Below, piece by piece: positions 29,983 to 39,353 of a stretch of DNA of 44,016 nt; within the stretch, counting starts at the first letter, position 1; each line of letters begins with the position of its first letter. The translations under genes were made by a program, and so were the position numbers. The stretch is from the sequence record PZ379180.1; one strand, written 5' to 3'. The notes under the pieces were generated by a model, which saw only the letters and a list, made by a program, of their open reading frames with translations, was not told the DNA's origin and made no database searches. Origin of the DNA: a phage.

Positions 29983-30114
29983 TCATTCCAGCACCCACAG
30001 ATAAATTGTTACTAACATACCTAATACGGCAACCATCATGCCGTATTGACCCTCGTGACAGTAGACACCGGCGGCGAATCCCGCCAGTACCGCAATAATC
30101 AGTTTACTTGGCAT
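29983..30114 (-). CDS. small membrane peptide (43 aa)
   Basis: Hydrophobic ORF MPSKLIIAVLAGFAAGVY..., below track cutoff. Confidence 0.25.
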   Translation of the reverse strand: MPSKLIIAVLAGFAAGVYCHEGQYGMMVAVLGMLVTIYLWVLE

Positions 30115-31492
30115 ATCGCTTCATCTCCGCACCTTCAGCTACAAGAGGGAACCCCTCCGCCCATTCCGGCAATTCGCACATCAACCGCTCAAGCTCTGCT
30201 ACATTGTATTCCGGTGAATCTGGTGTCTCGCAGATAATCTCATCGTGTACGTGAAGTACAATCGGGTAGCCGTTTGCTTCTACGTTCAGCAGGGCATTAG
30301 CCAGCAAATCACGGCACAATGCCTGAGTGCAGTTTTCCACCAGTTTACCCGAGTAGGTGTACTGGAACCCCCACTGACGGGTTAGCTGATTTTCGCCCTG
30401 GTACTTAATGCGCACGTTAGTAGACACCTTCCCGTCTCCATCTGTTTCTTTCGACACGCTCAACCCGACGCCCGGATAAGACATAACGCGACCCGACGGC
30501 AACGTCATGCGCAACCACCAACCAGCGACTTTGTTGCCGTTGTTGTCCGTTTCTACGTTACGCGAAAACTTAACACCCCGCGGTCCCGCAGTGAACTCTT
30601 TACCTGGATTGCGGATAGCCGCCATAGCCGCGTCTTCAATATCACGCCAGAAAGCTACTGTTTCCGGGTGTGACTCACGCCACATGCGCTTGATAGCGTC
30701 GCAGGTACGCCACACTTTCTTATCAAGAATATACGATGGTCGGTCATCCTTTTCACCTGGCCGCGGAGGTCGCTTGGCTTCCTGAATACGTGCCCATTCA
30801 TAGCCGCGTGCAGTAGCGGCCCATATATGGTTGGGGAATGTCCCGTCCATTGTTTTTGCCATATCAACCAGGTTTAAGCCGAGGTTCTTAGCAAACTGAA
30901 CGAAAGCACCGACACCACCAGCATAGCCAAGGCCCAATTCACATGCTTTACCTATCTGGCGTAGGTCACTACGGCTTTCGAGAATGTAATCAGGGTCCAT
31001 GCCGAACATCTTACCCGCGGTTACACAGTAAATATCCAATCCCGCACGGAAGGTATCGAGAGCGGTTTCTTCTCCCGCCAGCCATGCCAACCCGCGACCT
31101 TCAACGTTAGAGTAATCAGCTACGACAAACTTACGCCCGGCTTCCGGTATGATGCAGCTACGCACCGTCGATGCCGTTAGCTTGGCTACATCGAAACGGC
31201 GATGCGCGCGGCCTTTAAACAACAGGTCGATTCCGTAGGACAATGGGTGTGTTACCCTCCACCAGTCCTTCTCTGACATCCAGTCATAACGTACTTTCTT
31301 CTTTTTATTCTTCGGGTCGTCATGATAGTACCCGCGCGCCAGGTTCTGTGGCTGGAAGCCTTTACCCGCGAACCGTAACGTACGCTTTGCCCCACCGTAC
31401 TGGATACAACCGCGGCGTCGGTCGTCCGACGAGCGGCCTAACAGCAGCGGGTTATATTTCGTGGACGCTGTTGACGCGGCCCCGAGGCGCAT
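30104..31492 (-). CDS. DNA polymerase family A, polymerase-domain fragment
   Basis: Motif A VADYSNVEGRGLAWLAG, motif B RQIGKACELGLGYAGG, motif C LHVHDEIICE. Confidence 0.85.
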   Translation of the reverse strand: MRLGAASTASTKYNPLLLGRSSDDRRRGCIQYGGAKRTLRFAGKGFQPQNLARGYYHDDPKNKKKKVRYDWMSEKDWWRVTHPLSYGIDLLFKGRAHRRFDVAKLTASTVRSCIIPEAGRKFVVADYSNVEGRGLAWLAGEETALDTFRAGLDIYCVTAGKMFGMDPDYILESRSDLRQIGKACELGLGYAGGVGAFVQFAKNLGLNLVDMAKTMDGTFPNHIWAATARGYEWARIQEAKRPPRPGEKDDRPSYILDKKVWRTCDAIKRMWRESHPETVAFWRDIEDAAMAAIRNPGKEFTAGPRGVKFSRNVETDNNGNKVAGWWLRMTLPSGRVMSYPGVGLSVSKETDGDGKVSTNVRIKYQGENQLTRQWGFQYTYSGKLVENCTQALCRDLLANALLNVEANGYPIVLHVHDEIICETPDSPEYNVAELERLMCELPEWAEGFPLVAEGAEMKRYAK

Positions 31493-32370
31493 TTCGATAA
31501 TCGTGCGGGCGTCGTCAGGTAAATCATCATCGGTACCAGCAGGTCATTCAGCGTCGACTTCTGTGCGTTGTGTATGCGGTGTGCGGGGGCCAGTTCACGT
31601 AGAATAGGCAGAAAGTCCTTACCGGTAAGCGAGCCGCCGTATTTACGTTGAGCTTCTTCCTGTAACTGTGCCTTGTGCTTCTCTACGGCTTCAATCGCGG
31701 CTTCCGCCAGTGCGACGTCAACCTTAAATCCGCGGTCGTTGATTAACTGGTCAAGTTCCAGTACACGGTCTTCGAACTCGGAGTTACCCCAACGCGGCAG
31801 CTTATGGAAGACTTCACGCATCGCAGTGATGTCGCTCACGGCGTACCTGATGAACATCGCCCACTCGTCAGGGTGAGTTTCTGCGGTGTAGCGGCGGATT
31901 TTGTAGTTCTTCGGCGTCGGTTTAGAGAAACGCTTAATCAGAGCCTTGCCGCGTTTATCTTTCGCGTTGTCTGCAGACACGCCCAGCACTTCGCACAGCG
32001 CATCAAGAGAACCCGGCAGCGCGTGACGGAACGCCCAAATCATAGTATCAATGGTGTTACTTACCGGAATATCAAAGCCCCAGCAGTGTTTCATGATTAG
32101 GCGATCGAAAAGTCCACCGTTGTGCCATACCATCTTAATGCGACTGTTTGGCTTAACCAGACGGCGTAGAGCGCGGTGTAAATCCACGGGCATATCACTG
32201 CCGTCGGTGCAATCCCATACCTGTACAGGCTCGTCGTCAAAAGCGTAGGTACAGATAAGCACTTCGGTAGTTGGATGCTCGGCGTAAGCATAGGAGCCGA
32301 CTTTCTTCAAATCGGCTTCGGAGAATGTTTCAAAGTCTAAGTAAAGCAATGTGTTCATAGTCTGTACCAC
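31438..32370 (-). CDS. DNA polymerase family A, 3'-5' exonuclease-domain fragment
   Basis: Exo I motif LYLDFETFS; ORF overlaps the polymerase fragment by 55 nt in another frame. Confidence 0.8.
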   Translation of the reverse strand: MVQTMNTLLYLDFETFSEADLKKVGSYAYAEHPTTEVLICTYAFDDEPVQVWDCTDGSDMPVDLHRALRRLVKPNSRIKMVWHNGGLFDRLIMKHCWGFDIPVSNTIDTMIWAFRHALPGSLDALCEVLGVSADNAKDKRGKALIKRFSKPTPKNYKIRRYTAETHPDEWAMFIRYAVSDITAMREVFHKLPRWGNSEFEDRVLELDQLINDRGFKVDVALAEAAIEAVEKHKAQLQEEAQRKYGGSLTGKDFLPILRELAPAHRIHNAQKSTLNDLLVPMMIYLTTPARLSKCASGPRQQRPRNITRCC

Positions 32371-32692: not shown

Positions 32693-33316
32693 TTAACGGC
32701 GGCGACGTTCGCGACGCGGTGCGTCTTCTTCGTCGTCTTCCAGGTCATCGACGCTTGCAGCTACTTTAGAACCACCGAACGCTTTACCTTCGCCTACGTA
32801 TTTAATCGCCAGCAGGTTAACGCCGAGGACTTTATATTTCTGGCTGAACCAGATTTCTACGCTTACGTTAGCAACGCAGCCGCTGTAAACCTGTTCACCT
32901 TCAATCTGTTCACCGTCTACATTGAAGTCCTGCTCTACCTGAGTCTCGCCTTTTTTAGAGGTTACAATCAGCGGTTGTTTCTGTGCCTTCGCTTTGAAGT
33001 AGAAGCCTTCCGGGAAGTCTTCAAACGGATTGTCGCGCTCGGCAATGTCTTTAATCGCGCATTTATCCATGTGCTTACCTTCACCGTAGTTGGACTTCAT
33101 CCATTTCTCGGCAGCGGCTGCGCCTAACGCTTCTTCAACTACAGCGTAAACGGTGTCGTAGAGTGCATCGATTTGAGCATGGTCAGACGGCAGGATGATA
33201 GTCGCGCTGTACTGGCCTTTAGTGATTGAGCCATCATCGTTTTCACGGTCTTTTTCACGTTCAAATACGTTAACCCATGCAGTGTTTACTTTACGCAGAT
33301 TCAGTTTAATACCCAT
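32693..33316 (-). CDS. ssDNA-binding protein (T7 gp2.5 / DUF2815-like, putative)
   Basis: 207 aa with acidic patch SVDDLEDDEED near C-terminus; position in replication operon. Confidence 0.45.
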   Translation of the reverse strand: MGIKLNLRKVNTAWVNVFEREKDRENDDGSITKGQYSATIILPSDHAQIDALYDTVYAVVEEALGAAAAEKWMKSNYGEGKHMDKCAIKDIAERDNPFEDFPEGFYFKAKAQKQPLIVTSKKGETQVEQDFNVDGEQIEGEQVYSGCVANVSVEIWFSQKYKVLGVNLLAIKYVGEGKAFGGSKVAASVDDLEDDEEDAPRRERRRR

Positions 33317-33384
33317 CGTGATTTCTCGCTTTTCAGTTTATATTTCAAAGTTTACTCCAGGAAGCTGCCCGGCCAGTGATTAGA

Positions 33385-33413
33385 ACTATAATAGCTAACT
33401 ATTCAGGTGTCAA
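33385..33413 (-). promoter_or_regulatory. promoter-like element with AATAG-N4-CTATT palindrome
   Basis: Minus strand TTGACA-17-TATAGT, palindrome 33390-33403 in spacer. Confidence 0.5.
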
Positions 33414-33447
33414 ATAAAATTTTGCAATAGGGATTATGTTCTCGAAA

Positions 33448-33603
33448 TTAAGCATATTGGTACGGTTCGAACTCATCCTCTACAGGGTAGTATCGCATCA
33501 TGGTACCGTTCAAGAACGTGAACGATTCCGAGTGTAGATACCCATCCCAGTGCCATACCATCAAAAAATCTTTATCAGTCGGCATTTCATTTACTTGAAT
33601 CAT
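33448..33603 (-). CDS. hypothetical protein
   Basis: ATG at 33603 with AGGAGG RBS (track ORF 33448..33633). Confidence 0.35.
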   Translation of the reverse strand: MIQVNEMPTDKDFLMVWHWDGYLHSESFTFLNGTMMRYYPVEDEFEPYQYA

Positions 33604-33920
33604 TCTAAATCCTCCTCTGTAACTTGATTCCACTCAGGACGTTTGTCATCCGCCGTTGCGACGCATGGCGCACCGGGCTTACGGGTAATGAAGTCTTTCA
33701 GTTCTTCTTCCGGTACAATTTTAACCGCTTCGGTCGGTGTCATAAGAACTACCTTTTGCAGCATAGTACCGTACTTCTCGAATACTGCATCGGTATCTTT
33801 CCACGCACGATTACCCGGGCGTCCTTCAACCAGTTTATACCCCGGCACTTTCTTACCGGAATGTAACGCAGCAGCCATAGCTTTCTCAACCTTGTCGATG
33901 TGCTGGCGCAACAACGGCAA
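33600..33920 (-). CDS. C-terminal part of Cas4-like nuclease (frame open up to about 34093)
   Basis: Same frame upstream encodes CQWCRFSEQC cysteine triad; C-terminus TEEDLE. Confidence 0.5.
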   Translation of the reverse strand: MPLLRQHIDKVEKAMAAALHSGKKVPGYKLVEGRPGNRAWKDTDAVFEKYGTMLQKVVLMTPTEAVKIVPEEELKDFITRKPGAPCVATADDKRPEWNQVTEEDLE

Positions 33921-34084
33921 CTTCTCATACTCAGCTACGAGTTGCTCTGGCGTAAGCTCAAGTGCAAAGTCGTCCTCCAGTTCTTCCGCCAGCCCCGCGT
34001 TAACGGTTTTTGTACGCGCTGCGCATTGTTCAGAGAACCGACACCACTGACAACCATCTACCGACGGCTTGAAGTCCGACGCTT

Positions 34085-34840
34085 TCAGGTTCTTTTACCC
34101 CGGAAATAGGCATCAAGAGCCAACAGCGCCCGTTTCTGTGCAAACTTAGCGAACAGTTCCAGACCTTCAACCGAGATGTCCCACTCCGATGCACCGCCAG
34201 CGTACGGCTGGAAGATGACCAGTCGAACGGTTGTTATGCTATAACGTCTCTTGAGTCGGCGATAAACGCCGAGAGCATAAAGCATAAGCTGCTTGTTTTC
34301 TTTCGCTTCGACACGATGCCGCCCGGTTTTCAGGTCGCAGATGATAAGCATGTGTTCGTCGGTGTTAGCCAGTTCCTGTATGGCAACAAGGTCAGCAGTT
34401 CCGAACGTCTCAACGCCTTCATACCCCGGATGCAATACCTCAGTAAGATTAACACGCATTTCCAGCTTGGCGTAAGTCGCTATATCGATAATCGCCTTGC
34501 AGTAGTCGGTGTACTTGCGCACCTGCTCAATCATGTCCGCCGTAATCAGTACCGCGCCTTTCATCGGGCTGATTAGTGCCTTAATCTGGCCTTTGCCTTC
34601 ATCCAGCACGTAAGCACCGACTTCACGCTCTAACGGCAGCGCAGTTCCGCGAATATAAGCGTTGAGATGGACCTCAGCTATGGTGTGCATTGCCGTGCCT
34701 AATACAGCGGCTTTACCTGACGTGTTAGGGGTATCTTTTTCACAGGCCAGTGATGCCGCGCAACTTAGCCACTTTTTAGCCCCTGACGGCGACAGTAAGG
34801 CATGTACATCGTTATTGCCGCCGCGTTCTTTAAGAATCAT
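34085..34840 (-). CDS. PD-(D/E)xK nuclease, Cas4/RecB-like (N-terminal part)
   Basis: ICDLKTG (D-x-K) and QLMLYALG (Q-x-x-x-Y) motifs; N-terminal Cys. Confidence 0.6.
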   Translation of the reverse strand: MILKERGGNNDVHALLSPSGAKKWLSCAASLACEKDTPNTSGKAAVLGTAMHTIAEVHLNAYIRGTALPLEREVGAYVLDEGKGQIKALISPMKGAVLITADMIEQVRKYTDYCKAIIDIATYAKLEMRVNLTEVLHPGYEGVETFGTADLVAIQELANTDEHMLIICDLKTGRHRVEAKENKQLMLYALGVYRRLKRRYSITTVRLVIFQPYAGGASEWDISVEGLELFAKFAQKRALLALDAYFRGKRT

Positions 34841-35199
34841 CGTAAACTCTCCAAATACAAGTTTAATGCCTGTAACTGTTCTTCTGTAGGAATGAAAGAA
34901 TCATCGCGATGTAAGTCGCTTAACTGTTGCAACATTCCTGCGAACTGACGTCTTGCGTCAACAGCGTCCATGTGATGCTTTTCACTTTTATATATTAATG
35001 TTTTCGGGTAATCCTCAAGCCTGCCAGACGATTTATTCACGCGGAGCGCACGAGCTTCATGCACAATGTGAATGTACTTTTTGCCGTTTTGTAACACAGT
35101 AGCTACGCCGCTGCTCTTTCTGCGGTCGCCGACTGTGTAAACCTTGTCGCCACTACGCAGATTAAGCCACCATTTATCGGTCATACCCTGTTCTCCCAC
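34837..35199 (-). CDS. hypothetical protein
   Basis: 120 aa ORF, stop-start overlap with neighbours. Confidence 0.4.
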   Translation of the reverse strand: MGEQGMTDKWWLNLRSGDKVYTVGDRRKSSGVATVLQNGKKYIHIVHEARALRVNKSSGRLEDYPKTLIYKSEKHHMDAVDARRQFAGMLQQLSDLHRDDSFIPTEEQLQALNLYLESLR

Positions 35200-35453
35200 T
35201 GGTCAATTAAATGTCGTGTCTGGTGCTGGCAGTGCATGGCCCAGCTATACATCGACTCGAAGACATAAAAGTCAGGCTTGGCAAAAGTCGTGCGCTTAAT
35301 CTGCGACACGTGACGGCCTATATCTTTGGGCCTGGGTACTTTGCCTAAGTACGCCATCTCTTCCATCTGGTGCGCACCGGAAGGAGCGCGCAATAGCCAT
35401 AGAGCCTCCGTGTTATCCCGTCGGTCAATACCTCGGTAGAGTTGGTAAATCAT
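35181..35453 (-). CDS. hypothetical protein
   Basis: 90 aa ORF in leftward operon. Confidence 0.4.
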   Translation of the reverse strand: MIYQLYRGIDRRDNTEALWLLRAPSGAHQMEEMAYLGKVPRPKDIGRHVSQIKRTTFAKPDFYVFESMYSWAMHCQHQTRHLIDQWENRV

Positions 35454-35495
35454 ATTACGACCCTCTGTTAAAGCGGTCAGAAGGCCGCGGGATAG

Positions 35496-35999
35496 TTATT
35501 CTTCTTCGAAATACTTGTTCTTAATCGCCGTCAGGCGTTTCAGGTATTCAGCCAGGTCTTCGTCTTTAATCGCGGCAATCTTCATTTTCTTACCGGTGAA
35601 CTCCTCCAGCAGTTCATCGGAATCGTCGCACGCAGCATCGCTAGGACCTTCGTTAATTGCATCGTCGATAGCCTGAATCTGGTCACGAAGAGACTGGTAA
35701 TCGACCTCTTCTTTCTCTTCTTCTGGTTCTGGAGTCGGCTCCTCTACTTTAGCTTTACGCGGCTTGCGTTTCGGCTTCTCTTCTTCTTCTGCTGGTTTAG
35801 CGTCAACGATGTCTTCACCTTCAACAGGGATTTCTTTTGTTGCTTCTTTTTCGCACTCAGCTACCGCTTCTTTGGTATACACTACCGTCTCTACTTCTAA
35901 CGGCGCTGCAACTTGTGCTGACTGTTTCGCACTGTTCGCAGCAATCAGTTCATGTGCAACTACGAAACGTTCCAGTAATTTTAAGAATTGTTCTAACAT
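35496..35999 (-). CDS. acidic hypothetical protein
   Basis: 167 aa, E/K-rich central low-complexity region. Confidence 0.4.
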   Translation of the reverse strand: MLEQFLKLLERFVVAHELIAANSAKQSAQVAAPLEVETVVYTKEAVAECEKEATKEIPVEGEDIVDAKPAEEEEKPKRKPRKAKVEEPTPEPEEEKEEVDYQSLRDQIQAIDDAINEGPSDAACDDSDELLEEFTGKKMKIAAIKDEDLAEYLKRLTAIKNKYFEEE

Positions 36000-36021
36000 T
36001 TGTTTCTCCTGTTTATTTAGG

Positions 36022-36249
36022 TTACTCGCCGTCGCCTTCTGTAAGGCTATCGTCTATTAATTCAAATTTACCGTTTGAGTGTTGGATAGCTTCTTGCCCG
36101 CAATGGTCGCAAACCACCAGTTTATCGAATCCGTCAAACTCGTCCCCGACTACGCAAGAAAGTACAAATTTATGTTTTGTACATACTTCTTGATGTTCAC
36201 CGAAAATTACCCGGAAACATTTAGTTATAGCTCCAGTGATTATGTTCAT
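36022..36249 (-). CDS. zinc-ribbon hypothetical protein
   Basis: CTKHK...CDHCGQ cysteine pairs; first gene downstream of leftward promoter; GAGGTG RBS. Confidence 0.4.
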   Translation of the reverse strand: MNIITGAITKCFRVIFGEHQEVCTKHKFVLSCVVGDEFDGFDKLVVCDHCGQEAIQHSNGKFELIDDSLTEGDGE

Positions 36250-36277
36250 ATCTTCACCTCTCGTTTGGTATGGGCTA

Positions 36278-36307
36278 ACTATAATAGCGAACTATTCATG
36301 ATGTCAA
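36278..36307 (-). promoter_or_regulatory. leftward promoter with AATAG-N4-CTATT palindrome
   Basis: Minus strand TTGACA-18-TATAGT, palindrome 36283-36296 in spacer. Confidence 0.5.
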
Positions 36308-36371
36308 TGGGCTTTTCTAAAATAATTAATATGGTACTATTCACACATCAACTGACTAAGGAGTAATTGAC

Positions 36372-36587
36372 ATGCAACCATCCGAACTAGGCATCCGTGT
36401 AGAGCAACGCCGTAAAGAACTCGGCATCTCCCAGCGCCGTCTGGCGGTCCTGACCGGCGTTTCCCAGGGCGCAATTAACCAGCTGGCTCTCGGTGTAACT
36501 CAGGACGTCCGCCCGGCAACGTTGTTTAAACTGGCGGAAGTGCTGGAAGTAGACGCTAAGTGGCTGGCGTTCGGTGAAGGGGCTTGA
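36372..36587 (+). CDS. XRE-family HTH regulator (Cro/CI-like)
   Basis: LGISQRRLAVLTGVSQGAINQL helix-turn-helix; AAGGAG RBS; divergent from leftward operon. Confidence 0.75.
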   Translation: MQPSELGIRVEQRRKELGISQRRLAVLTGVSQGAINQLALGVTQDVRPATLFKLAEVLEVDAKWLAFGEGA

Positions 36588-36603
36588 CGCCCCTTTCTTT
36601 TTA
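36577..36603 (+). terminator. intrinsic terminator
   Basis: AAGGGGC-ttgac-GCCCCTT hairpin followed by TCTTTTTA. Confidence 0.55.
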
Positions 36604-36798
36604 TTGCACCTTTATCGGGTATCTTTTGCGAAACTTACCTAACCCGCAGTACACGCTGTAAGCCTCTGTGTAACTGAACACAACATGATACCCGCGCCCA
36701 TAAGGAACTACGTTAAGAACTTCTACTACTTCGCCTCTGTGGTTGGTGTATTTATTACCTTTCAGTTCGTCGCTTACTTCTTTAAATTTACCGCTCAT
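36601..36798 (-). CDS. hypothetical protein
   Basis: 65 aa ORF coupled to primase gene (overlapping stop-start). Confidence 0.4.
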   Translation of the reverse strand: MSGKFKEVSDELKGNKYTNHRGEVVEVLNVVPYGRGYHVVFSYTEAYSVYCGLGKFRKRYPIKVQ

Positions 36799-39062
36799 TC
36801 CAAATCCTCCTCTGTCACTGTCAACATTTCATTCGGTTCGTATATTGTCTTTGGAATCTTGTTATCAGTTATTCTGGTGTTCAGCCTGTAACGACCTGGG
36901 ATTATCTGATTGTTTTCGTCAGTACCCGGAACAAGATACCCGGCCTCAACCATTTTCTTAATCTTCCCGCGTTCTATGGCTTCTTTGGAGTTAAACGCCT
37001 TTGCGTTTGGGTCTGACTGTGCGAGCTTATTCGCCGCGGCGACTGTGATGCCTTCGTTGCCGTTGTAGGTTCCTTCCGCCAGTTCAAACGCCGCGAGTAT
37101 CGTGGCCTCCGAACTGTTGACGGCGTTCTCTACGGTTTTACGTACATTTTCTTTACCTTCTTTCGTCAACCCTTCTTCCCGCTCTTTCTCCTCGTCAGTT
37201 TTGAACGGCTCGAAACCCCACGGCATCAACACAAGCGCCTTGTGTGGTTCAGGCAGGTCCAGGTTTACGATTGTGCCGTATTCCTCTGTGCTACCCAGGA
37301 ACTCAACCGCTCGGTATTCTTTAGGTGGCGGCGCTTCACGGAACTGTACCGACTCCAGCACCATGCCAACCGTCTTCTGCTGAGGCCCGTGCTTGAATTT
37401 CGAGTGATATACGTTTATCTGACGGTCGGTTGCACGTTCGATTGTCAGTTCCACATCAACACCCGCATACAGCGCCCCACTGCCGCGTGCTTTCTTTCCA
37501 CCCTTCGGCGTATGGTGGACAACGCCTACTGCGGCTTTAGTTGCATCGCGTACTTCTTTCAGAATGGCGATAACTTTACCCATGCCGATTGCTGTTGATG
37601 AACTGTTCTCGTCGAACTTATCAATCGTCAGTGCCAGGGTCTGGTTAAGGGTGTCGAACGCAACCATGCCAATTGGCTCGTCGCCAGCAGTTTCGCGCAT
37701 TAACTTAATCAGGCTTTTAAGTTTGCCGACTTCGCCCATATCGATGACATGTACATAATCTTTACCTTCCTCGCCGTATTTAGCCGCGAGCGCATCAATA
37801 CGTGTACGTGTGGCTGCCCCACCCTCGCCGTCGATATAGAAATGGTGACAACGCTGGGTGTCAGCCCCTGCAAACCGGTATCCGGCGGCGCTCAGGTACA
37901 TCATCCCCAGCGTATAGAATGATTTGTACGTGCCCGATTCTCCGACGATACCCCAGATACAATCCGACGGCATGTACCCCTCAACGACGAAATCAGCCTT
38001 TACCGGCTCCGGTAACTCGTCCTCCTCTGAGTCCTCGTCGTCTTCCAGGTCGTCGAGGCTGCATGAGACAGATTCACGCGCCCCCCAACCGATGGCCTCT
38101 GCGACTTCACTGAACGGCAGCCCGGTCGCATCGCACGCGTACTTCCACACCTCTTTCGGTGACAGGCCTTCTGTCGCCGTAATGTCTGTGTCGTGAATCA
38201 TGGTTACGTTTGGCGCTTCATACCCCTCGCGCGGGAAGCACAGCAGGAAGTCGTCCGGGCGCGGTGTCGGGTCGCTGTAGTTTTCGGCATGTTCCGGTGT
38301 GGCTGGCATCTTAAGGCCGCGCGGCGTCATGACGCCGCCGTACTCAAACGCCAGTGCTTCAAACGCGTCTGTAAACGCGGTGCGCAGTTCTTCCGGTATC
38401 TGGTAATCCGATGCGCTGCTAACGTCAACGGCTGGGATGCCTTCCAGTAACTCGTTCGGGTCGATCAGGTCGTTGCGGCGCGACCAGATAACGGTAGCGC
38501 CGACCGGCGGCAGGTACATCGGCTGCGACAGAGTGAACCCGCTGCGGTCCGCACCCATGCCTTTGAAGAAGTGCTCCAGCAACCCATGACGAACACGGAT
38601 GATATCACCACCCTCAACTGGGCGGGCCAGCGGCATGACGACGCGAAAGCGAGGCGACTCATCGGTATGTGATGCCGTGGTGTAGAGACACATCGCCCGG
38701 CGGCTGCGATTAACCAGGCGCACCGCTTCCTGGTACTCTTCCGGTGTTGCACTGTCGAAGTCCAGATACGCCAGCGACGATTTGCTCACAGACGCATCGC
38801 AGCGATAAAAGAAACCTTTACGCGCCTGCTTAAAGTCTCCAGTTTCCGGGTCTTTTACGGTGCTGTGCGTAGAGTCGCACGCGGCTGTGATGTAGCCAGG
38901 GGCTGTCTTCGGGTTAATCCCGTCACGAATGGCATCGAGCGGCTGAATTAACTCTTTCAGGTCGTCCAGTGTTGCCGTGTGTGTGGTTCTGACGTTTATA
39001 TCCTTTTTCTCTGCCCGCGCGTTGCGACGTGACCACGAGTAGGATAAAATTACATCGGACAT
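36795..39062 (-). CDS. DNA primase-polymerase / helicase (PrimPol-like N-domain plus RecA-like ATPase)
   Basis: LDFDS catalytic-like motif in N-domain, Walker A GESGTYKS, Walker B-like VAFDTL; 755 aa; C-terminus TEEDLE. Confidence 0.7.
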   Translation of the reverse strand: MSDVILSYSWSRRNARAEKKDINVRTTHTATLDDLKELIQPLDAIRDGINPKTAPGYITAACDSTHSTVKDPETGDFKQARKGFFYRCDASVSKSSLAYLDFDSATPEEYQEAVRLVNRSRRAMCLYTTASHTDESPRFRVVMPLARPVEGGDIIRVRHGLLEHFFKGMGADRSGFTLSQPMYLPPVGATVIWSRRNDLIDPNELLEGIPAVDVSSASDYQIPEELRTAFTDAFEALAFEYGGVMTPRGLKMPATPEHAENYSDPTPRPDDFLLCFPREGYEAPNVTMIHDTDITATEGLSPKEVWKYACDATGLPFSEVAEAIGWGARESVSCSLDDLEDDEDSEEDELPEPVKADFVVEGYMPSDCIWGIVGESGTYKSFYTLGMMYLSAAGYRFAGADTQRCHHFYIDGEGGAATRTRIDALAAKYGEEGKDYVHVIDMGEVGKLKSLIKLMRETAGDEPIGMVAFDTLNQTLALTIDKFDENSSSTAIGMGKVIAILKEVRDATKAAVGVVHHTPKGGKKARGSGALYAGVDVELTIERATDRQINVYHSKFKHGPQQKTVGMVLESVQFREAPPPKEYRAVEFLGSTEEYGTIVNLDLPEPHKALVLMPWGFEPFKTDEEKEREEGLTKEGKENVRKTVENAVNSSEATILAAFELAEGTYNGNEGITVAAANKLAQSDPNAKAFNSKEAIERGKIKKMVEAGYLVPGTDENNQIIPGRYRLNTRITDNKIPKTIYEPNEMLTVTEEDLE

Positions 39063-39119
39063 GTTGTATTTCCTTCAGCAAGTAATTTGGCCTCGGCGCT
39101 CTAACGTCGGGGCTTTCTT

Positions 39120-39353
39120 TTATTCCAGGTCTTCTAAAGTAGCGGTAATCCCGCGAACTTCAGCAAAGGCACTATATTTCCCGCCAACATTTTTCACGAC
39201 GCCAGATTTAACCAGCACTTTTAACGACCCTTCAATAATGACGGAACTATAGTACTTAAAATAACTACGGCGCAAGTCGATAACACTGCATGACCCTTTT
39301 TTACGTGTTAACGAAACGACCGCCGTAAATACGCGTGACTGGAACTCTGTCAT
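39120..39353 (-). CDS. hypothetical protein
   Basis: 77 aa ORF, C-terminus LEDLE. Confidence 0.4.
   Translation of the reverse strand: MTEFQSRVFTAVVSLTRKKGSCSVIDLRRSYFKYYSSVIIEGSLKVLVKSGVVKNVGGKYSAFAEVRGITATLEDLE

Follow-up and report, generated by a model that had tools for sequence, protein, structure and literature searches.

Four unrelated replication proteins encoded on the minus strand of a phage genome (sequence record PZ379180.1; the entire stretch of 44,016 nucleotides is referred to as the window) share a short acidic peptide, (D/E)-D-L-E, which is probably a lineage-specific docking peptide that connects its carriers to a common hub encoded by the phage itself. The occurrence of the motif is far beyond chance. 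Comparison with homologs shows that selection preserves the protein sequence of the motif whatever the constraints on its nucleotides, that it recurs at equivalent positions in other genera, and that it is replaced in other lineages by a different peptide in all carriers together. The proteins that carry the motif in the window are encoded as follows:

36795..39062, minus strand: primase-helicase of 755 residues; Pfam domain AAA_25 at residues 351-522 (E = 1.3e-17); relatives are annotated as replicative helicase-primase
33600..34840, minus strand: DUF2800 / PD-(D/E)XK (Cas4-like) exonuclease gene, split; DUF2800 (E = 6.8e-66) and PDDEXK_1 detected on the intact homolog (L001:3898-5187)
33600..33920, minus strand: 3' part of the split DUF2800 gene (the "nuclease C-part"), ending in ...NQVTEEDLE
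32693..33316, minus strand: T7-type (gp2.5-like) single-stranded-DNA-binding/annealing protein (SSB); PF10991 Enc34_ssDNA-bd (formerly DUF2815) at residues 5-198 (E = 1.1e-15)
39120..39353, minus strand: orf77, a small protein of phrog_5169 (function unknown) encoded just upstream of the primase-helicase and ending in ATLEDLE

The primase-helicase consists of an N-terminal primase-like part, an acidic linker, the RecA-type helicase core (AAA_25), a C-terminal domain, and a conserved tail of 20 residues. An earlier, sequence-only reading of the window had reported five motif sites, all of which were found again; a weaker sixth copy is present in an internal linker of the nuclease. The sites and the extension that follows the SSB motif are:

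36798..36818, minus strand: C-terminus of the primase-helicase, VTEEDLE (...MLTVTEEDLE)
33603..33623, minus strand: C-terminus of the nuclease, VTEEDLE
39123..39140, minus strand: C-terminus of orf77, ATLEDLE
38013..38060, minus strand: internal copy of the primase-helicase, SLDDLEDDEDSEEDEL, in the linker that joins the primase part to the helicase part
32723..32755, minus strand: SSB, SVDDLEDDEED, directly after the oligonucleotide/oligosaccharide-binding (OB) fold
32696..32722, minus strand: SSB, basic extension APRRERRRR after the acidic motif
33966..33989, minus strand: nuclease, weaker sixth copy AEELEDDF in an internal linker after the Cas4-like cysteine cluster

Among the 315 open reading frames (ORFs) of at least 40 codons in all six frames, [DE]DLE occurs at only five sites, all of them in replication proteins and three of them exact C-termini. 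Chance occurrence was assessed on a greedy set of 75 putative genes, from which the nuclease C-part was omitted. About 0.42 sites are expected in this set at any position and 0.0023 at C-termini, compared with 4 observed sites, 2 of them C-terminal (5 and 3 once the nuclease C-part is added). In 20,000 within-protein shuffles, four or more sites anywhere were obtained with P = 0.0013 and one C-terminal hit with P = 0.0024; three C-terminal hits never occurred.

The internal motifs of the primase-helicase (~38030..38046) and the SSB (~32730..32746) have 17 identical nucleotides in common (GACCTGGAAGACGACGA, minus strand), and the tail of orf77 shares GACCTGGAA with both. Either preferred codons or an ancient transfer of sequence may account for the nucleotides that these motifs share.

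Conservation and covariation of the motif

The conservation of the motif was assessed in 42 relatives from IMG/VR, 40 of which have a readable primase tail, and in about 120 protein clusters. A search for homologous proteins yielded only close relatives for all three queries; distant homologs were located by a search of representative sequences and by tblastn. The primase tail is conserved as TE[EDG]DLE in 40/40 readable relatives and as VTEEDLE in 112 of the 120 clusters. It is retained also in about 24 relatives (more than half of the 40) in which the primase gene ends with TAG or TAA followed by a hairpin and lacks a translationally coupled gene downstream; the uncoupled tails differ by synonymous changes (GAG/GAA, TTG/TTA, and ACA/ACC/ACT). 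The nuclease tail is kept as [TS]E[ED]DLE whether or not a coupled downstream gene is present, and the tail of orf77 reads LEDLE in Kagunavirus-type loci and PEDLE in Jersey-type loci. The sequence-only reading had named lack of conservation in relatives as an outcome that would speak against a common docking motif; the tails persist in some 40 relatives from IMG/VR, in the roughly 120 protein clusters, and in three further phage groups, which decisively contradicts that outcome.

In the primase linker, the core [ST]L[DEY]DLE is fixed, whereas the acidic run that follows it is rich in insertions and deletions; the corresponding linker of Jersey-like phages contains C-DEEDL[ADG]DEE. In SSBs with as little as 62% identity, residues D191, L192, E193, D194, and D195 do not vary, and DLE persists even at 48%. 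At least three alleles of the C-terminal domain exist in the primase-helicase; they are only 33-44% identical, yet all of them end in the same 20 residues (K[IR]PKTIYEPNEML.VTEEDLE). Such a stable core between rapidly changing flanks is typical of a short linear motif. The acidic (E/D)DLE core described in the sequence-only reading is real at each of its sites, although what is conserved is D-L flanked by acidic residues and not the acidic run itself. Nor is a free C-terminus needed, because the copies in the linker and the SSB are internal and some nucleases end in ...DLEA or ...EEDL.

The linker motif is duplicated in tandem in the relative L032 (CDEEDLADEEDLAD) and in Eiauvirus eiAU-183 (ADEDLYVCTDEDLEDE), which suggests that copy number may matter. 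The C-terminal domain of the primase-helicase (~36861..37150, minus strand; residues ~640-734) has a helix-helix-helix-hairpin pattern with a winged-helix-like look, and the flanks of its alleles are identical in close relatives. The domain is mosaic and possibly represents an origin-specificity module.

Homologs of the primase-helicase with only 30-40% identity still end in an acidic-D-L-x-acidic pattern, such as DEDDLSDD, TDDDLKD, SEADLE, or NADLED. The motif occupies the same positions as in the window not only in Jerseyvirus-like phages but also in Dhillonvirus SM_S22, vB_SenS_SE1, and Eiauvirus eiAU-183, namely the C-terminus and linker of the primase-helicase, the C-terminus and internal linker of the nuclease, and the start of the SSB tail; the exception is the SSB of SE1 (gp22), in which no [DE]DL site was found. 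At the internal-linker position of the nuclease (alignment A6), the homologs read TDEDLGDD in Dhillonvirus, ESDLEDD in SE1, and ADDLRDE in Eiauvirus. The further copies are:

Dhillonvirus: SATDEDLKD, EATDEDLSNE, and SCSDEDLDNDDE
vB_SenS_SE1: TSEEEDLEN, VCQDEDLMDEPC, and PATDNDLAN
Eiauvirus: SATNSDLED, TDEDLEDEPS, PVKDDDLVD, and TATDDDLSDDDD

The basic extension of the SSB is conserved. Extensions of a similar basic or mixed-charge kind follow the SSB motif in Dhillonvirus (...APRKRRRR), SE1, and Eiauvirus, whereas the SSBs of T7, Chi, and Staphylococcus phage phiSa2wa have none.

In other lineages with the same triad of nuclease, SSB, and PolA, the peptide itself is exchanged (for a DEV type in Chi and a DFDD type in APSE-like prophages and a Staphylococcus phage), and the exchange affects several non-homologous proteins at once:

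Phage Chi (L047): primase ...FDDEDEV; nuclease ...WDDEDDDDEV; SSB ...WDEDEDWEDEV; gp4 ...EEDDV
APSE-7 (L048): nuclease ...NDFDDV...; SSB ...EFDDL...
Staphylococcus phage phiSa2wa (L051): nuclease ...SAEDDFDKL; SSB ...SAAEDDFDEL...
Large prophage-like group: nuclease ...NDFDDVSDDALAADLI; SSB ...DDFDDISEGADADALI
T7 (control): gp4 ...NDTDF; gp2.5 ...EDGDF; gp6 exonuclease without an acidic tail

A permutation over 18 lineages showed that nuclease and SSB tails of one lineage resemble each other more than tails paired across lineages (matched mean score 25.4 vs 20.9 +/- 1.15, P = 4e-5). The motif core thus recurs in non-homologous proteins and varies together by lineage, again as in a short linear motif. 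The earlier suggestion of a common docking motif for one partner gains support from this covariation between non-homologous proteins, which is what a common, co-evolving receptor predicts.

Many unrelated phages and prophages (loci L088-L131 among them) have a tail of their own lineage on both the DUF2800 nuclease and the DUF2815 SSB, and often on the primase as well. In Chi, the helicase (gp10) also has an acidic end of the Chi type (...VWDDEE).

Candidate receptors and alternative functions

As a docking handle, the peptide would be a short linear motif in which acidic residues surround a single conserved leucine. Disordered tails and linkers would display it: in the primase-helicase at the C-terminus and between the domains, in the DUF2800 exonuclease at the C-terminus and in an internal linker, in the T7-type SSB where the tail begins, and in orf77. 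It would serve as a common address label by which each carrier plugs into one phage-encoded receptor site, and such docking would hold helicase, nuclease, and SSB in place at the fork or on recombination intermediates. Different motifs are found in phages of the same host (Chi vs Jersey-like phages in Salmonella; T7 vs Kagunavirus in E. coli), suggesting that the receptor is probably encoded by the phage.

By analogy with T7, the family A DNA polymerase is a plausible, if tentative, candidate for the receptor, because it is the only core protein that never carries the tail and because the acidic tails of T7 gp4 and gp2.5 bind basic patches on gp5, where the tail tethers the polymerase and supports exchange (PMC12593628). 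In the window, the polymerase is encoded by two ORFs (30104..32370, minus strand; a DNA_pol_A domain and a 3'-5' exonuclease domain are present on the intact homolog). A copy of the motif is absent from the polymerase in all lineages examined, and its C-termini are RY[AR]K-like and never acidic; the gene was found in 69/80 loci, and most of the remaining loci are truncated. A possible and slightly more tentative candidate is the concave beta-sheet of a neighboring SSB. In the crystals of T7 gp2.5 and of three DUF2815 proteins, Enc34 ORF6 among them, the acidic tail of each SSB docks in trans on this seven-stranded sheet of the adjacent molecule, a contact whose biological role is stated to be unproven (PMC5686142). 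The two candidates are not mutually exclusive, and both sites may be used, as in T7.

Disorder of the motif-bearing segments was explored with AlphaFold2 (AF2). The model of the primase-helicase (44 sequences) has low confidence overall, with a mean predicted local distance difference test score (pLDDT) of 50.3, although the pattern of domains can be recognized in it. Within this low-confidence model, pLDDT is 24-36 in the linker (residues 327-380) and the tail (residues 730-755) compared with 69-85 at residues 650-729, and a single helical turn is placed exactly on each motif, a weak structural hint. The model of the SSB (9 sequences; mean pLDDT 39.5) is too poor to confirm the fold.

Several observations weigh against a common docking peptide. 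Because both single-chain AF2 models are of low confidence, the argument from disorder is soft. Polymerase and SSB are both present at essentially every locus of the module, so the phyletic pattern does not separate them as receptors and singles out neither. The tails of T7 require a C-terminal aromatic residue, whereas the leucine is at position -2 in the window and the copies in the SSB and the linker are internal; the mode of recognition must therefore differ. Some lineages, such as Xylella phage Salvo, have no clear match between the tails of nuclease and SSB, and most of the sampled relatives are closely related, so that the locus counts represent non-independent events. Both the binding of a partner and its identity are what we infer from patterns of conservation.

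An improbable alternative is that the tails act in cis, each folding back on the DNA-binding surface of its own protein as a DNA mimic, for autoregulation and without a shared partner. There is precedent for DNA binding gated by an acidic tail in T7 gp2.5 and T4 gp32, and every carrier in the window is a DNA-binding protein. Deletion of the tail of Enc34 ORF6 alters the discrimination between single-stranded and double-stranded DNA (PMC5686142), and the tail of gp2.5 competes with single-stranded DNA for the OB fold (PMC10359462). However, four unrelated folds would each have to recognize the same D-L-E core, and a generic DNA mimic needs no invariant leucine. Moreover, nuclease, SSB, and primase change in concert from one lineage to the next, as a single common receptor would predict and independent sites in cis would not.

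Docking to a conserved host factor of E. coli or Salmonella, such as an SSB partner, a chaperone, or a protease adaptor, by which the tails would recruit a host protein or hide from it, is quite unlikely. Although many phage proteins hijack host hubs by short peptides, phages of the same host differ in their motifs, which follow instead the lineage of the phage replication module. The motif also differs from the clamp-binding consensus QL[SD]LF and from the SSB tip DDDIPF.

A docking peptide would also be compatible with a more general "tail code" for the widespread replication/recombination module of DUF2800 nuclease, DUF2815 SSB, and PolA; this code is proposed here tentatively. Each lineage would have its own acidic-hydrophobic peptide (DLE, DFDD..LI, W/F-DDED..EV, or DF), by which every component except the polymerase would plug into one co-evolving site on the polymerase, the neighboring SSB, or both; the carriers would include primase-helicase, nuclease, SSB, and small proteins of unknown function (orf77 and Chi gp4).

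Two tails overlap signals for translational coupling

A single type of 21-nucleotide cassette (ACAGAGGAGGATTTRGAATGA) underlies both VTEEDLE tails; its two copies are identical at 20/21 positions and have the consensus ACAGAGGAGGATTT[G/A]GAATGA. The last six codons of the genes encoding primase-helicase and nuclease (GAG-GAG-GAT-TTR-GAA-TGA) are dual-coding: they also provide the strong Shine-Dalgarno (SD) sequence, the spacer, and the ATG of a translationally coupled small gene:

36795..36815, minus strand: cassette copy 1, ACAGAGGAGGATTTGGAATGA, with SD AGGAGG, a 7-nucleotide spacer, and an ATG (36798..36796) that overlaps the TGA of the primase gene
36601..36798, minus strand: small gene downstream of the primase gene; matches phrog_36357; the 4-nucleotide overlap is annotated in phage fEg-Eco06
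33600..33620, minus strand: cassette copy 2, ACAGAGGAGGATTTAGAATGA, with SD, a 7-nucleotide spacer, and an ATG (33603..33601)
33448..33603, minus strand: small gene downstream of the nuclease gene; matches phrog_6314; the 4-nucleotide overlap is annotated in fEg-Eco06

Within the replication region, the minus strand has no sites of the type GGAGG plus start codon other than these two. That the two tails are almost identical in nucleotides as well, for a reason that the sequence-only reading had missed, is explained by this overlap with the coupling cassette.

The codons of the tails vary with the presence of the coupled gene. GAGGAG is found in the nuclease tails of 16/17 coupled loci but in 0/16 uncoupled loci; for the primase, the corresponding numbers are 11/13 and 9/22. 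The coupled nuclease tail reads ACA GAG GAG GAT TTR GAA TGA, whereas the uncoupled tail reads AGT GAA GAA GAT TTR GAA TAA and is followed by a TTGACA-17-TATAGT promoter. Where no coupled gene follows, relatives preserve the peptide in other codons; codon choice thus follows the use of the SD, and the motif is selected independently.

It is therefore very doubtful that the shared tail is a functionless by-product of coupling, with AGGAGG, seven nucleotides, and ATGA simply being read in the frame of the upstream gene. The presence of the same cassette under both VTEEDLE tails and the association of GAGGAG with the coupled gene would fit such an origin. However, uncoupled relatives encode the motif with codons that do not form an SD (GAA GAA or GAA GAC), and the tail of orf77, which uses GAA GAC CTG GAA, overlaps no start codon; the same is true of the internal copies in primase, SSB, and nuclease. 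In other genera, too, the motif is retained, although what lies downstream differs. The comparison of coupled and uncoupled relatives led to the rejection of the cassette as the cause of the motif, and the cassette stays as a second coding layer. Because it overlaps the tails, any experimental truncation of a tail must allow for the SD of the downstream gene.

The ends of both genes adjoin variable slots (loci L002-L043), which are occupied by any of several unrelated ATGA-coupled small genes or by a hairpin or promoter (a GGGGC-GTTAA-GCCCC hairpin after the primase gene; a TTGACA-17-TATAGT promoter after the nuclease gene). In the primase linker, an internal start analogous to that of T7 gp4B was sought after the SD-like GAGGAGGA, and no start codon was found at a suitable spacing.

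Although the variable slots downstream of primase and nuclease, the mosaic C-terminal domain of the primase, and the 17 nucleotides shared by the internal motifs of primase and SSB could point to relics kept by their position at mosaic recombination junctions, or to chance matches between acidic low-complexity sequences, such an origin is extremely improbable, because the tails show synonymous variation under amino-acid constraint within and between genera, even one C-terminal hit has a chance expectation of only ~0.002, and D-L stays fixed while the acidic flanks vary.

The replication module and its relation to known systems

The window region belongs to a siphophage of the Kagunavirus type (Guernseyvirinae). 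Its identity is 99.3% with Escherichia phages BEU35 and BEU33 and 95% with fEg-Eco06, an annotated phage. Its minus-strand replication module comprises a small helix-turn-helix protein, orf77, the primase-helicase, small genes, a cro-like gene, the DUF2800/PD-(D/E)XK exonuclease, the T7-type SSB, and the family A polymerase. Compared with fEg-Eco06, the nuclease gene, which encodes an intact protein of 429 residues in that phage, is split by a 1-nucleotide deletion in an A-run near position 34096 (GGGGTAAAAG vs GGGGTAAAAAG), and the polymerase gene is split by a 2-nucleotide insertion (TA) near position 31535 that creates GGTACC. Both frameshifts could be assembly errors or real pseudogenization.

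At the stop codon of orf77 there is no overlapping gene, and 57 nucleotides separate it from the ATG of the primase gene. A free-standing copy of the C-terminal domain of the primase was considered for orf77 and was not supported: BLASTP found no match between orf77 and this region, hhalign returned a probability of 2.8%, and a profile search of the PDB with orf77 yielded no match. The idea that orf77 may have a winged-helix fold comes from its sequence pattern only.

A very acidic protein of 167 residues (35496..35999, minus strand; phrog_3127) contains an internal KDEDLAEY and has a hydrophobic-acidic end (...KYFEEE). Syntenic ORFs end alike in Dhillonvirus (...YFELED), SE1 (...YYEIEE), and Eiauvirus (...FFEFEEE). 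Homology of this protein to Chi gp4 was looked for, and none was detected.

Literature searches retrieved genome reports but nothing that describes the motif. Should the motif prove to be a docking handle, it would extend the T7 model from helicase and SSB to a recombination nuclease and small proteins of unknown function, from a C-terminal phenylalanine to a D-L core that can also be internal, and from a single phage to a module that well over a thousand sequenced phages and prophages possess (the nuclease occurs in 1,487 phage records). It would also allow replisome components such as orf77 to be nominated from sequence alone, and exchanges of tails between lineages would provide tests of specificity. 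The lineage-wide covariation would make the wiring of the replisome predictable and testable, and if the tail code holds, replisome membership and partner specificity could be read from the sequences of thousands of uncharacterized phages and prophages. The overlap with the SD is a clean natural case of one stretch of DNA with two functions, in which codon choice switches with the need for the second.

In its nucleotide features, the cassette is exactly that of ordinary translational coupling, with an SD in the upstream gene and an ATGA stop/start overlap at 36795..36815 and 33600..33620. It goes beyond ordinary coupling in that the codons of SD and spacer also encode a conserved peptide, with GAG GAG or GAA GAA depending on the presence of the coupled gene.

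At the level of the peptide, a matching logic is found in phage T4, where gp43, gp33, and gp55 dock on the gp45 sliding clamp by a common C-terminal peptide. As in T4, several unrelated proteins end in one short peptide for one hub, but the T4 peptide is hydrophobic whereas the motif in the window is acidic, and no clamp gene was seen in the module. The SSB of E. coli has a C-terminal tip (DDDIPF) that serves as an acidic-plus-hydrophobic docking handle on a disordered tail in replication and repair. Statements to that general effect are made in PMC10359462. Compared with E. coli SSB, the topology is inverted: one tail with many receptors in E. coli, many carriers with presumably one receptor here.

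The DUF2815 family has been placed in the T7-type group of SSBs, and the tail of the Enc34 protein is disordered in the crystal (PMC5686142). The SSB of the window belongs to the same Pfam family as Enc34 ORF6, which makes the sheet of the neighboring SSB a concrete candidate for the receptor site. The tail shared by Enc34 and Chi (...WDEDEDWEDEV) differs from the DLE of the window; its presence also on the primase and nuclease of Chi, as seen here, is not reported in PMC5686142.

T7 and the phage of the window both combine a family A polymerase, an SSB with a gp2.5 fold, and a fused primase-helicase, although the helicase core of the window is of the RepA/AAA_25 type. In both, non-homologous proteins have a common acidic tail with one key hydrophobic residue, and in the window the tails of helicase-primase and SSB are similar in acidity (TEEDLE vs SVDDLEDDEED). 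Unlike the D-F-COOH of T7, the D-L-E of the window does not end in its hydrophobic residue and lacks a C-terminal aromatic, and the motif of its SSB is followed by a basic extension (RRERRRR). The phage of the window also has internal copies in linkers and employs the nuclease and a protein of 77 residues as carriers, whereas T7 gp6 has no such tail. The nuclease and orf77 as carriers, the internal copies, and the basic extension on the SSB thus add to what is known from T7.

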